Virus genome (UHGV): UHGV-0219734
Source of the DNA: a virus
Reading direction: 5' to 3' (one strand)
Length of the DNA: 20,304 nt
In this document: in pieces, positions 15,380 to 19,957 of the stretch
How the letters are laid out: each line of letters starts with the position of its first letter
Position numbering within the stretch: the stretch's first letter is position 1
Notes under the pieces: generated by a model
What the model saw: the letters and a program-made list of their open reading frames with translations, nothing else
What the model was told of the DNA's origin: nothing
Database searches by the model: none
Position numbers and translations under genes: made by a program

Positions 15380-15597
15380 CAGAACCTCGCCAGCCGGTAC
15401 CCGGGATGCCCCCGTCGTCGTGTAATCAGAGCCGCAAGGCGGCGCTCCCACTCCTGCCGTCCCTGCCGGATCTCAGATAAGTTTTCCATGGTCATCTGCT
15501 GACCATTAAAGGTGACGGATTTTCCGTCCAGCACCGCCATTTCAGCTTCCGTATAACGCTGAATCATGGCTTCGATATCATTCTGGTTCATAACCAT
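15379..15597 (-). CDS. W: Head-tail joining protein gpW-like
   Basis: About 70-aa ORF between terminase large subunit and portal. C-terminus ...ITRRRGHPGYRLARF resembles lambda gpW ...QRRRGPAGFYV as recalled. An alternative start at the third codon (ATG 15589-15591) overlaps the terminase stop (ATGA). Confidence 0.7.
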   Translation of the reverse strand: MVMNQNDIEAMIQRYTEAEMAVLDGKSVTFNGQQMTMENLSEIRQGRQEWERRLAALITRRRGHPGYRLARF

Positions 15598-17690
15598 CCT
15601 CCGGAAGTCAGCCAGGGGTTAACATCGTCAGTTACTGTTTTCTTCCGTTTTTGTTTTTTAACAGGCGTGGATACCGGTTCCGGTGAGGGTGACGGTTCGG
15701 TACTGTCCGGGACACACTCCAGCCAGGTTTCCCGGCTCGCCCACTCCGGTGTATCCGGCCAGCGGATCTTTTCGTATCCATGCAGAATGACCAGAGCCTC
15801 GGCATACACCATCAGGTCAAAAGCTTCGTTGGCACCGCGACCCGGCTTACTCCATTTCCCGTCACTGCTCCGCTCTTCATACGTCAGTTCGTCGTAAAAC
15901 CAGCTCCCCAGCCAGTCAGGGAAATGCACATAGCCGGGACCTGGAGAGTCACGCCATAACGCGTTATTCACCCGGTCTTTCAGGGCATCCGTCTGAAGAA
16001 GCCAGAGCGGCACATCACCTGCGGCCTGCGCCCGTCGGCCCGTTCGTCCGGTGTTATCAGGGAATGTACGGGTGATCAGTTTTGCGCGCCGGATGCTGTC
16101 GCCCTTAAACAGGTAAATACGTTTACCAAGGCCATCACGACGGCAACGACGCCAGAATTTATAGGCATTATCAGTGACCCCGTCTTCACCGCCGGAGTCC
16201 ACCGCCATTGCCATCAGTCGCATTTGTTGAGAAGGATCGGAGGCCAGCGGCCAGCTTTTATGAAAAACATCCGTCAGCAGGACATCCCAGTCTTCCGGAT
16301 AGCTGGCCGGATCAATTCGCTGGCTCTCCCCGTCGCTGTCACCGCGCAATGACTGCGTGATGTTGTAACGATCAATAATCCAGCGTTCGCCACGGCTGCC
16401 ATAGCCCGTTACCTGAACCACAAAACGGCGATGACGTCCCGCCTGCACATCCACTGTCGCCACAAGGAAATTAACGCCATCCGGCACACTGCGGGAAGGA
16501 ACTGGCTCTGCCCGCTGCTCAAGCAGTTCACTTTTTCGTTGCTCCATGCTGGCACGGGGAAGATAAGGTAATCCCCAGTCGGTATTGATAACCGTCTTGA
16601 GTGTTTCTTCACTTCCGGTTGTCTCGTATTCCTGTTCTGCAGTAAGCAGTTTGTAAACGAGTTGCGAGAGTGTCTGGTAAGCAGCTGCCGGACCCTCCAT
16701 CCAGAATGACGCAATACGTGAGCGTCGGGGATCACCATAACGACTGCCATCCGCATTGATGGATTCACCATCCCGCAACCAGACCCCACGTCCGTTCAGC
16801 TCACGTTTTTGTTCAGGCATAATCCGTCCTGAACAGGAAGGACACTGAATATAAGCCGCCTCACTTGCCAGCACGGGATCGGCAATATCACGGAAACCAG
16901 CAACCACATCGCCGCAGGGCTGAAAATACTCACCACAGTGTGGACAGGGCCAGTACCAGCGACGGCGATCACCACGGTTATAGAGCGACAGTATCCCCGT
17001 GGTTGGTGGAGCCTCATGCGGTGAAGTCCGTCGCCATTTCACATCCTTCACATCCCTGCCGGGGGAACTCTCCACCAGCGTCATACCACTGGACATAAAT
17101 GTGGTGGTACGTTTTGAGGCAAGAGAGAAAGCATCCCCCTCGCCATCAATATCTTCCGGAAAACGGTCATAATCCGTCAGCGCGACGCATTTATAATCTG
17201 ATGAGGACATGATATTGACTGACGGCCAGCCGATTTTCAGGTAGTTACCAGCAAGGAATGTTCTGTCATAAACGTTGTTGTCATTTTTGTTCGGACTCAG
17301 GCGACTGACCACTTCCGGGCTGACGCGAAACGTTCTGGCGAGTCGTTTTTTGGAGTGTTCGCGGGCTTTTTCCTCCGTCATCTGAATGATCAGCATATCA
17401 GCAGGATCGCAAATCACGTTGTAAATCACCCAGCCGTCAATCAGGCCGATAGTCTTGCCGGTTCGTGCCGGGCCAACAAATATCACTGCGTCGTATTCAC
17501 GCGAGGCCAGGCAGTTCATCGGCTCAATAACATACGGTGCCACCAGCGGATCCCACGGGACTGAGTTCCCTGCCCCCATGGGCACCCGCATATACTGAGC
17601 AACGGCATCAGCAACCCGCATTCGCCTCGGTGCGCGAAGGATATAACCTGAATCGGTTCGTGCTGCCTTTGCGGTTTCCTGATTCAGCAT
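15588..17690 (-). CDS. Terminase large subunit (GpA family)
   Basis: 700 aa. Walker A-like GPARTGKT; Cys/His cluster WYWPCPHCGEYFQ paralleling lambda gpA ACPHCGEEQY as recalled. ATG overlaps the small-subunit stop (TAATG). Confidence 0.9.
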   Translation of the reverse strand: MLNQETAKAARTDSGYILRAPRRMRVADAVAQYMRVPMGAGNSVPWDPLVAPYVIEPMNCLASREYDAVIFVGPARTGKTIGLIDGWVIYNVICDPADMLIIQMTEEKAREHSKKRLARTFRVSPEVVSRLSPNKNDNNVYDRTFLAGNYLKIGWPSVNIMSSSDYKCVALTDYDRFPEDIDGEGDAFSLASKRTTTFMSSGMTLVESSPGRDVKDVKWRRTSPHEAPPTTGILSLYNRGDRRRWYWPCPHCGEYFQPCGDVVAGFRDIADPVLASEAAYIQCPSCSGRIMPEQKRELNGRGVWLRDGESINADGSRYGDPRRSRIASFWMEGPAAAYQTLSQLVYKLLTAEQEYETTGSEETLKTVINTDWGLPYLPRASMEQRKSELLEQRAEPVPSRSVPDGVNFLVATVDVQAGRHRRFVVQVTGYGSRGERWIIDRYNITQSLRGDSDGESQRIDPASYPEDWDVLLTDVFHKSWPLASDPSQQMRLMAMAVDSGGEDGVTDNAYKFWRRCRRDGLGKRIYLFKGDSIRRAKLITRTFPDNTGRTGRRAQAAGDVPLWLLQTDALKDRVNNALWRDSPGPGYVHFPDWLGSWFYDELTYEERSSDGKWSKPGRGANEAFDLMVYAEALVILHGYEKIRWPDTPEWASRETWLECVPDSTEPSPSPEPVSTPVKKQKRKKTVTDDVNPWLTSGGWL

Positions 17691-18184
17691 TACTCCTCCT
17701 GCTGTAATTCCTCCTCATCATCCGCACCTGCTTCGGTCACCCGCAGGGCTATCTGATCGCGCAGATCATCAATAATGGACTGAACACGGCTCACAGCGGC
17801 AGGCTGCAGACCGCAGTCACGTTCCAGAATATCCGGTAATGTCTCCAGCACCTGCACGACCGCTTTTGCCCAGATGGCAAACTCCCGTCTGACATCACTG
17901 GCCGGAATGAGTTGCGCCGTTTCCTGTTCGAACTTAAGACGCTCACGTTCAGACTGATACCAGGCTTTGCGCTCATGCGCGTCCATTTCGCCTTCTGCAA
18001 CCGGCGGTGGTAATGCCAGAAATGCCGACACAATATCAACCACCCGATAAAGCTTGAGGTTGCTTTCATGCCCCCCTGCAACGGGTAGATTTTGCAGCCT
18101 TGCCGCAGCAGTCTGGCGATGTACACCTGACAGTGCCGCCAGTTGACTGATATTCAGCGTCAGATTTTTTAACTCTCGATCCAT
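17690..18184 (-). CDS. Terminase small subunit (Nu1-like DNA-packaging protein)
   Basis: 164 aa. N-terminal helix-turn-helix-like segment LNISQLAALSGVHRQTAAARL, acidic C-terminus (DDEEELQQEE). Immediately upstream of and overlapping the large terminase; first gene downstream of the cos site. Confidence 0.75.
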   Translation of the reverse strand: MDRELKNLTLNISQLAALSGVHRQTAAARLQNLPVAGGHESNLKLYRVVDIVSAFLALPPPVAEGEMDAHERKAWYQSERERLKFEQETAQLIPASDVRREFAIWAKAVVQVLETLPDILERDCGLQPAAVSRVQSIIDDLRDQIALRVTEAGADDEEELQQEE

Positions 18185-18376
18185 ACCCGCTCCAGAATGT
18201 TTTAAACATGCATCTTGCGAACAACTTTAGGCAAACGGTGTTAGTGATGAACAAAAAACAATCAAAATCGACACCATAAAAATAAAACTAATGTAATATC
18301 AATGCATTACAGTAGTGGTGATGACGAATGAAATTTCAAAAACTAGCCTTTTCCCGCGACGCTCCCGCCCCGTGGC
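18185..18376 (-). other. cos site: cosN (about 18353-18376) plus cosB (18185-18352)
   Basis: Minus strand reads CCACG-GGGCGGGAGCGT-CGCGGG-AAAAGG..., against lambda ACG-GGGCGGCGACCT-CGCGGG-TTTTCG as recalled. Further in, ATTCGTCATCAC echoes lambda CTTCGTCATAAC. AT-rich stretch with repeated TCATCAC motif before the small terminase start. Predicted 12-nt cohesive end is minus-strand GGGCGGGAGCGT (plus 18359-18370). Confidence 0.6.
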
Positions 18377-18763
18377 AGGCCACCCCACCGGGAGGACCCG
18401 TCAGCCTGACAGCCATGACGAACGTCTGATACAGCGCCCTGCATGAATGGCATCGGGATAATCCAGAAAGGAATAGCATCGTGCCCACAAGAATCTGTGT
18501 GAGTGTCCTGTTTCTTCCACCCCCGCACAGGACTGGCGAGCATGAGGGACAAACCCGCGAACCATAAACGCGGTAAAAACCCGGTGTGCATCGTTTTTGA
18601 TTATTCCCGCACACTCGCGCAGAAGGAGTTCCCCGTCGGGCTACGGTCTCTGTTAATACGGGAATACGGCGACGATACAGCGCATGATGTGTCAGGCTTG
18701 AATACCTTTATCCGTTAAAAGGGATATCAGTTAAGTTATCCCGTGTAGGGTATAAGCCATTAC

Positions 18764-18785
18764 AAAAGCCCCGCGAATGCGAGGC
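18764..18785 (-). terminator. Terminator-like hairpin downstream of the lysis cassette
   Basis: Minus-strand RNA 5'-GCCUCGC-AUUC-GCGGGGC-3' (7-bp stem including one G-U) followed by UUUUG. Flanked by a 9-bp inverted repeat cattacaaa / tttgtaatg (about 18758-18766 and 18798-18806). Confidence 0.4.
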
Positions 18786-18959
18786 TAAATCCTGGTATTT
18801 GTAATGACTGGCTCTTATCCCAACGCAGCCCCTTACCGCGCGCAAGATGCTCAATATCAAGCATCAGCAATGAGATATTTAATCTGGATTCACTCCAGAA
18901 GTGATCACCACCCTGTCTACAGAGCCAGATGTGAAGGATGATGAGTAAAATTATCGCTA

Positions 18960-19427
18960 TCATCGAAGGCATTGCGTCCTGATGTATTCCTGAAGCGTTC
19001 TCAGTGCTGTTTGGTCGCTGATGATTCCGTCCCGGATACCGAGAACGTTTCGTCCAGCAACTGGAGAGAGTTCGACGGTGGCATCATTGCCCATGCCGGA
19101 GGCGCTGGAGGCTTCGGCTGAGGTTGGCACAGGGCATTTTCCTTTGACGAACACCCGACCACCATTATCAAGCTTGCGCCGAAGAGCATCATTTTCAGCT
19201 TTCGCATCAGCTAACTCCTTCGTGTATTTAGCATCGAGTGCATCAGCAGCACGCTGGCGCTGCTGCATGTCAGTAATGGTGGCGTTCGCCTTCTCCAGTT
19301 CTCTGGCATTTTTGTCGCGCTGGGCTTTGTAGGTAATGGCGTTATCACGGTAATGATTGACCGCCCACGACAGGCAGACGATGATGCAGATAACCAGAGC
19401 ATAAATAATCGCGGCGACTCTGCTCAC
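18960..19427 (-). CDS. Rz: i-spanin Rz
   Basis: Translation ...[54 protein letters not shown]...[19 protein letters not shown]... closely resembles lambda Rz as recalled (N-terminal TM then coiled coil). Probable GTG start at 19425-19427 overlapping the endolysin stop; the track's TTG at 19442 is an alternative. Confidence 0.85.
19001..19207 (-). CDS. Rz1: o-spanin Rz1, embedded out of frame within Rz
   Basis: 68-aa ORF entirely inside Rz in the +1 frame. [18 protein letters not shown]|CSSK has a lipobox, followed by a Pro-rich stretch [12 protein letters not shown]. Resembles lambda Rz1 (MLKLKMML...VVVGC...PPPPPAW) as recalled. Confidence 0.8.
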
Positions 19428-19957
19428 TGATCTATCCCCCAACAGGCTAATGCGCTTTCCTGGTCACGACGAATAACCTGCCCATAGCAGTTATTTGAAC
19501 GTATGCGGCAATCGCGCCCACCATCTTTTATCCACCAACGAATCGCCTCGCATGCACCCTTACGATCACCGGCATTCAGCCGCTTATAAAACGTCGACGG
19601 GAAACACTTACCGGGGCCAATGTTATAGGGACAAAATGACGCTATACCCGCTTTCTGTGGTTCGGTCAGAGGTACTTTAATATTGCGCTCCACCCATGCC
19701 AGCGCCTTATCACGTTCAATAGCGTTAACCTGGTCGCATTTTTCCTTCGACAGCTTCATTCCCGGTATGACGGGCTTACCATCCACCATTGTGGCACCAC
19801 GACAGATGGTCCATATACCGGAACCATCGCGGTATGCCGTAGTGTGGTTACCCTCTTTTTCATCCAGAAACTGGTCAAGTATTTGAGGAGCAGACGCGCC
19901 TGCAGCAATCAGCGCCAGAACAGCAGCTGACAGGCCGTATTTGATTTTTGCGCTCAT
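19424..19957 (-). CDS. SAR endolysin (phage lysozyme, T4-lysozyme-like GH24 catalytic domain)
   Basis: 177 aa. N-terminal weakly hydrophobic Gly/Ala-rich segment ([17 protein letters not shown]) typical of a signal-arrest-release domain. E-x8-D-x5-T catalytic spacing in [16 protein letters not shown]. Followed directly by Rz/Rz1. Confidence 0.9.

Follow-up and report, generated by a model that had tools for sequence, protein, structure and literature searches.

In phage lambda, read-through of Q-modified RNA polymerase into the terminase genes is established biology. The closest described counterparts of the locus studied here are the bor region of lambda (Rz, bor, the bor promoter and p78) with its equivalent in the DLP12 prophage of Escherichia coli K-12 and, for the small open reading frame (ORF) and hairpin directly after Rz, the junctions of phages mEp460, epsilon34 and Sf6. 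At the other end of the interval lies cos, whose cosQ, 7 bp long, is strongly conserved across lambda-like phages (PMC4669245).

Gene order and sequence identities mark the window (the whole 20,304-nt stretch of virus genome UHGV-0219734) as a mEp460-like lambdoid prophage with its late genes on the minus strand. All coordinates follow the plus-strand numbering of the window, and "late-sense" refers to the minus strand. The nearest phages, vB_EcoS-569R4, mEp460 and Ayreon, share approximately 97% identity with the window, and positions 18185-18975 are identical in two E. coli chromosomes. The late genes on the two sides of the interval are as follows.

19424-19957, minus strand, lysozyme gene
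18960-19442, minus strand, Rz gene, with its stop codon at 18960-18962
19001-19207, minus strand, Rz1 gene, embedded in Rz
17690-18184, minus strand, small terminase gene, DUF1441-type
15588-17690, minus strand, large terminase gene, 700 aa

In the locus of E. coli GU2018_CL13 (L003), the large terminase (405-2506) is treated by PGAP as frameshifted, with a feature of 2102 nt; this locus is otherwise identical to the window, where 15588-17690 is an intact ORF of 2103 nt encoding 700 aa.

From the Rz stop codon (18960) to the cosN nick (18371/18370) we measured 589 bp, which bears out the spacer of about 580 bp described in an earlier, sequence-only reading of this DNA, with the left edge given there (18377) off by 6 nt. 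The spacer differs from the lambda and DLP12 regions in the absence of bor, p78 and p79 and, at 589 bp versus approximately 2.1 kb, in length; real bor genes were found in other lineages. We assign a probability of about 0.75 to the reading that this spacer consists of the late lysis cassette's 3′ untranslated tail followed by the upstream (cosQ) half of cos, and that a conserved core within it is most likely a folded late RNA. Along the direction of late transcription, the order is Rz/Rz1, a small ORF, an intrinsic terminator, the 108-bp core, cosQ and cosN. The interval is an ordinary lambdoid lysis-to-cos junction of a known kind to which two private mutations have been added, a lost stop codon and a 40-bp deletion. 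With the interval resolved, two or three spurious small genes that keep appearing in phage annotations can be dropped, among them the ORF annotated over cos in mEp460 and Ayreon.

The cohesive-end site

The sequence-only reading had expected a cosQ-type packaging element in the interval. On sequence grounds such an element is present at the far left end, as the heptamer listed below, and not at the terminator hairpin, which lies approximately 370 bp away.

18399-18393, minus strand, cosQ heptamer GGGTCCT, identical to lambda 48473-48479
18359-18370, minus strand, 12-nt 5′ cohesive-end sequence of cosN, GGGCGGGAGCGT, with the nick between 18371 and 18370

The comparison with lambda cosQ proposed in that reading gave an identical heptamer, located 22 nt from the nick in the window and 23 nt from it in lambda, where cosQ occupies 48,473-48,479 (GGGTCCT). 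A block common to mEp213, mEp043 and others starts one position away from the heptamer, at 18400. Across cosN, the minus strand from 18373 to 18353 reads ACG/GGGCGGGAGCGT/CGCGGG, and the late-sense cos sequence ...GACGGGTCCTCCCGGTGGGGTGGCCTGCCACG/GGGCGGGAGCGT/CGCGGGAAAAGG aligns with the lambda ends ...ACGGGTCCTTTCCGGTGATCCGACAGGTTACG/GGGCGGCGACCT/CGCGGG, the last part being the left end of lambda. [quoted passage not shown] Variation in the half of the 12-mer that differs is common, harmless and tolerated among natural lambda-like phages (PMC4669245). The database record of phage cdtI starts at the equivalent of 18370 and that of phage Tritos ends at the equivalent of 18371, and these termini place the nick independently of the lambda alignment. 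CosQ together with cosN would end each packaging round, and the cohesive-end site is now fixed for the mEp460-type prophage family.

Several other features were noted around cos. The Ayreon record (L001, MF807953, approximately 150-300) has an insertion of approximately 141 bp exactly at cosN (equivalent to window 18359-18368), which holds a copy of a small-terminase gene fragment and seems to be an artefact of assembly across the cohesive ends. In the presumed cosB, immediately upstream of the small terminase gene, there is a promoter-like site TTGATA-18-TATGGT (18273-18302, minus strand) that is also found in mEp460.

An ORF of 82-94 aa annotated at 18343-18591 on the minus strand spans both cosQ and cosN; in its 82-aa form it corresponds to gp59 of mEp460 and to a "putative late gene regulator" of Ayreon. 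With substitutions distributed 16/15/24 over the three codon positions and 8 indel sites, it lacks a coding signature, and its annotation, propagated as phrog_17397, is probably spurious. Minus-strand ORFs of 82 and 123 codons were both rejected as genes, as neither had a coding signature in the codon test.

The terminator and the small ORF after Rz

Four features are found at the Rz end of the spacer.

18786-18767, minus strand, intrinsic-terminator hairpin AGCCTCGC-ATTC-GCGGGGCT, followed by the tail TTTTGTAATGG (18766-18756)
18755-18809, 12-nt inverted repeat enclosing the hairpin (arms 18755-18766 and 18798-18809), 92% complementary
Approximately 18763/18764, junction of the 40-bp deletion, a 40-nt gap relative to mEp460 and Ayreon
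18760-18972, minus strand, small ORF over the Rz stop codon, 70 aa, with an ancestral 50-codon part at 18823-18972

The late-strand hairpin was the sole terminator-like site within 18100-19100. It has 8 pairs (6 of them G-C) and a loop of 4, and its T-tract TTTTGTAATGG, a short one with 4 consecutive T, occurs on the minus strand only; a G+C-rich stem-loop followed by a T-run on the transcribed strand, as in intrinsic terminators, was accordingly found for minus-strand transcription alone. The late-sense fold of 18750-18812 reached -25.8 kcal/mol (z = -5.7), with 0 of 200 shuffled sequences as good, versus z = -2.4 for the plus-strand fold. The same 18767-18786 hairpin is carried by mEp460, and a Rho-independent terminator is annotated in epsilon34 after the homologous small ORF. 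The hairpin is thus a plausible late-strand terminator: the terminator-like hairpin with a U-tract pointed out in the sequence-only reading is real, but it belongs to the minus strand, and there is none for a bor-like gene on the plus strand. RNA polymerase without the Q modification would stop at this site, and, on circular or concatemeric DNA, Q-modified polymerase would be expected to continue across the spacer and transcribe the terminase genes.

Alignment showed that the 40 extra bases of mEp460 and Ayreon form a second, longer hairpin, CCATTACAAAAGCCACTC-CCTACA-GAGTGGCTTTGATAATGG (CCATTACAAAAGCCACTCCCTACAGAGTGGCTTTGATAATGG), which is annotated as a terminator in Ayreon. The two-hairpin form is present in at least 65 fetched loci; just two sequences, the window and the identical E. 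coli locus L003, have the one-hairpin form. As judged from this alignment, a tandem two-hairpin cassette lost 40 bp by deletion, and the terminator of the window is the one hairpin left. The 9-bp inverted repeat described earlier around the hairpin does exist and even extends to 12 nt, but its nesting is a by-product of the deletion, which put the upstream CATTACAAA copy beside the tail of the lost hairpin; the nested repeat is a deletion scar and no designed element. These observations also bear on the idea that the hairpin and its flanking inverted repeat are themselves a cis-acting packaging element, the cosQ-type site proper. While a very stable structure upstream of cos would suit such a role, we regard it as extremely improbable, given that the canonical cosQ heptamer lies elsewhere at a lambda-like distance, that the hairpin region is also found in P22-like headful phages without cos, that the inverted repeat is a deletion product limited to the window and one identical E. 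coli locus, and that the distance from hairpin to cos varies among relatives.

The 70-aa minus-strand ORF reported from the sequence alone is an open frame with a recognizable family, phrog_11822, but its length is particular to this DNA: the codon at 18822-18820 is TGG in the window and TGA in mEp460 and Ayreon, and because of this lost stop the frame runs through the hairpin to 18760, giving 70 aa versus 50 aa in relatives. The ancestral 50 residues matched phrog_11822 end to end in a PHROG search (residues 1-50, E = 1.1e-37), and no Pfam domain matched the ORF. Across the four candidate ORFs compared with Pfam and PHROGs, the matches were limited to PHROGs of unknown function. The small ORF corresponds to gp58 of mEp460 and, in epsilon34, to gp67, whose similarity to Sf6 gene 65 (gp65) has been described, and synteny is kept in mEp460 and epsilon34, with the small ORF overlapping the Rz stop codon and a terminator following. 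The window therefore shares with these relatives the small ORF over the Rz stop and the same hairpin downstream, and differs from them in the lost stop codon (70 aa) and, compared with its lambdoid relatives, in the deletion of the second hairpin. PGAP labels this ORF "Rz, incomplete", a name that we rejected, as none of the 66 database relatives is a full-length spanin and there was no Pfam match.

It is possible, though we would not favor it, that this ORF encodes a real late small membrane protein, maybe a lysis accessory, the 70-aa form then being a read-through variant that is either tolerated or inactivating. The ORF has a fixed position, its ATG lying within the final codons of Rz with AGGA 4 nt before it, its N-terminus is hydrophobic, and it is found directly before the terminator in both P22-like and lambda-like phages; the phrog_11822 match and a length of 47-50 aa retained in most of the 66 relatives point the same way. 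Yet these relatives are all at least approximately 67% identical and confined to Escherichia, Shigella and Salmonella phages or to Escherichia and close kin, a narrow range in which conservation may reflect recent spread, and variants with a lost stop, a frameshift or an altered start circulate among them. Over few sites, the substitutions show only a weak codon-position pattern (8/4/11, with 8 synonymous and 15 nonsynonymous), and no domain was found.

A conserved non-coding core

Between the terminator and cosQ, the spacer contains a sharply bounded block that is conserved far beyond the mEp460-like phages.

18577-18684, minus strand, conserved non-coding core of 108 bp, present in 432 phage records, lambda included
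18678-18672 with 18588-18594, minus strand, helix H1, 7 bp, predicted by RNAalifold
18666-18656 with 18602-18612, minus strand, helix H2, 11 bp, predicted by RNAalifold
18503-18718, plus strand, mechanical ORF, an open frame over the core, 71 aa from GTG or 58 aa from ATG 18541
18505-18533, minus strand, short hairpin GTCCTGT (15 nt) ACAGGAC, at the edge of a block common to 2B8 and Stx 1717-type phages

The core is homologous to approximately 46,868-46,975 of lambda, upstream of bor, with 81.7% identity, and copies were also found in the borD-ybcV intergenic region of K-12 DLP12, in 933W/Min27-type and 1717-type Stx phages, and in Salmonella phage ES18. In lambda and DLP12, as in the window, it is located between the lysis genes and cos. 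More generally, it always separates the lysis genes, with late accessory genes (bor, rha, kilA-N) where these occur, from the packaging genes, and the packaging modules downstream are of at least five different kinds. The flanks are unrelated between lineages and both edges are sharp breakpoints in many of them, making the core a non-coding island that has survived recombination in at least five phage lineages, lambda included, and the feature of this interval worth following experimentally. A search from the ES18 copy returned no more distant relatives beyond Escherichia, Shigella and Salmonella phages, and a search for borD-ybcV intergenic features gave nothing relevant. With variable morons around it, occasional erroneous ORF calls over it and, in lambda, an overlap with the annotated bor promoter, the core may have escaped notice.

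One such ORF is the plus-strand frame, which the sequence-only reading had offered as a 58-aa candidate gene in the bor orientation, together with the expectation of a small protein expressed in the lysogen. That it is a prophage-expressed small protein functionally replacing bor is, in our estimate, very unlikely, even though the 71-codon frame exists mechanically, runs in the same orientation as bor in lambda, and is a place where gene callers sometimes call ORFs. It matched no Pfam, PHROG or Bor family. Among fetched homologues, substitutions fell 19/23/14 over the three codon positions (13 synonymous, 43 nonsynonymous) with 8 indel sites, showing no third-position bias, in contrast to the gene controls lysozyme (39/34/193) and the small terminase TerS (27/22/71). 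The frame is open in 26 of 50 distinct variants of the conserved segment and broken by a stop or frameshift in the other 24, including all lambda-type and the abundant L090-type cores, in which the nucleotides are nonetheless conserved; abundant lineages have a stop just before ...NPVCIVFDY, and 1-nt indels plus an internal stop occur in lambda-type copies. The ORF starts with 12 hypervariable codons that also contain indels, its last third is exchanged for other sequence at a recombination breakpoint (18684), and no promoter-like site was found upstream of it on the plus strand. Most phage records annotate nothing there, and the ORFs that have been called in databases vary in their ends and in length, from 41 to 105 aa. 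Conservation was thus seen at the nucleotide level only, the very outcome that the sequence-only reading had set against a gene, and over the conserved core the plus-strand frame is open by accident.

Base pairing in the core

H1 and H2 are two nested inverted repeats within the core. Two sequence sets were used, the second anchored outside the 5′ arms to avoid bias from the first search pattern. Across 67 distinct core variants, 98.6% of helix cells form standard pairs. Compensatory double changes were observed at 4 pairs (G-C to A-U, U-A to C-G via U.G, C-G to U-A via U.G, and C-G to G-C) versus a mean of 1.5 in shuffles, 8 of 500 of which reach 4, and there were 17 further pair types versus 13.4 in shuffles (0 of 500), with the caveat that these controls ignore relatedness among the sequences. 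H2 of ES18 has two more compensatory changes, U-A to C-G and C-G to A-U, along with two mismatches. Selection for base pairing in the core is therefore likely.

With respect to the strand, approximately 184 of 1206 helix cells hold G.U when the late strand is read, which would turn into A.C if the plus strand were read, and the consensus fold of the core is -23 kcal/mol in the late sense versus -7 for the plus strand (-43 versus -28 for a longer block). Counted by distinct substitution events, the asymmetry is 8 to 3 (p = 0.11). Because a mild C-to-T excess is also present in unpaired core columns, the strand assignment is not secure, and the late-sense RNA reading is favored at that strength. 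The folding energy of the core as a single sequence is not unusual (z = -0.75). In the short hairpin at 18505-18533, 7 variants have a compensatory change from U-A to G-C; with a fold z of 0.25, this hairpin is weak alone.

Rfam gave no matches at the gathering score in the window and five related loci, and chance-level matches only for 18100-19100 at E values up to 5; by eye, there was no convincing match to nut/boxA-like or put-like elements in the interval. The known prophage small RNAs AsxR/AgvB and Pas were rejected as candidates, being located between Q/PR′ and the lysis genes and not at this position.

RNA element or DNA site

We tentatively propose that the core may be an undescribed structured RNA of the late transcript, common to lambda, Stx-converting, mEp460-like and ES18-like phages and compatible with any lysis or packaging module. 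It would act as a folded RNA, with the 7- and 11-bp helices arranged coaxially around an internal loop, and could serve as a processing or stability signal separating the lysis-gene mRNA from the head (morphogenesis)-gene mRNA. The sib/RNase III retroregulation site of lambda is a possible functional analogue, being likewise a bipartite stem that spans about two helical turns, contains an internal loop and follows a gene block; both would be transcribed only by antiterminated polymerase, and we do not claim membership. The sib site differs in having no sequence similarity to the core and in belonging to another location and operon, and we do not claim that RNase III cleaves the core. If true, a functional late-RNA structure here would add a new element of regulation to the best-studied phage, testable by lambda genetics.

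The core could instead act as DNA, either as a promoter or other control region that serves morons of the opposite strand, bor among them, or as a conserved linker for homologous recombination between lysis and packaging modules, which we consider unlikely and somewhat less probable than an RNA element. The GenBank annotation of HK630, our source for the position of the bor promoter, puts it (TGGACA-15-TACAAT) within the lambda-type core, but the -10 hexamer TACAAT is confined to lambda-type cores, and the window, which reads TACGGC, has no promoter-like site there. Similarly, in several lineages the core is followed by bor or a bor-like gene, whereas many others have late-strand cargo (Rha, KilA-N) or nothing beside it. 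Downstream of the core, both lambda and DLP12 have a second promoter-like site and a PhoP-box-like repeat. With TACAAT limited to lambda-type copies, many lineages lacking an opposite-strand gene, and the PhoP box outside the core, promoter function does not explain the conservation, and we rejected the core as a bor promoter, which is not conserved beyond lambda-type copies. The recombination breakpoints at both edges in many lineages speak for a DNA site, and the loops, which are as conserved as the stems, also fit a DNA-level site or recent horizontal spread; however, compensatory pairs and tolerance of G.U would be unexpected for a promoter or a neutral linker.

Upstream of bor/borD by approximately 60 nt, and outside the core, we noted a perfect PhoP-box-like direct repeat, TGTTTA-GGGTT-TGTTTA, located between core and bor at 1870-1890 of the HK630 locus (L093) and approximately 2445-2465 of the K-12 DLP12 locus (L294). 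The gene borD belongs to the PhoP regulon (PMC5740661), and the position of the repeat suggests that a PhoP-dependent bor promoter would differ from that of the HK630 annotation. The window has a further direct repeat at the variable left edge of the core, GGGACAAACCCG and GGTAAAAACCCG, whose two copies (18546-18557 and 18572-18583) lie 26 nt apart.
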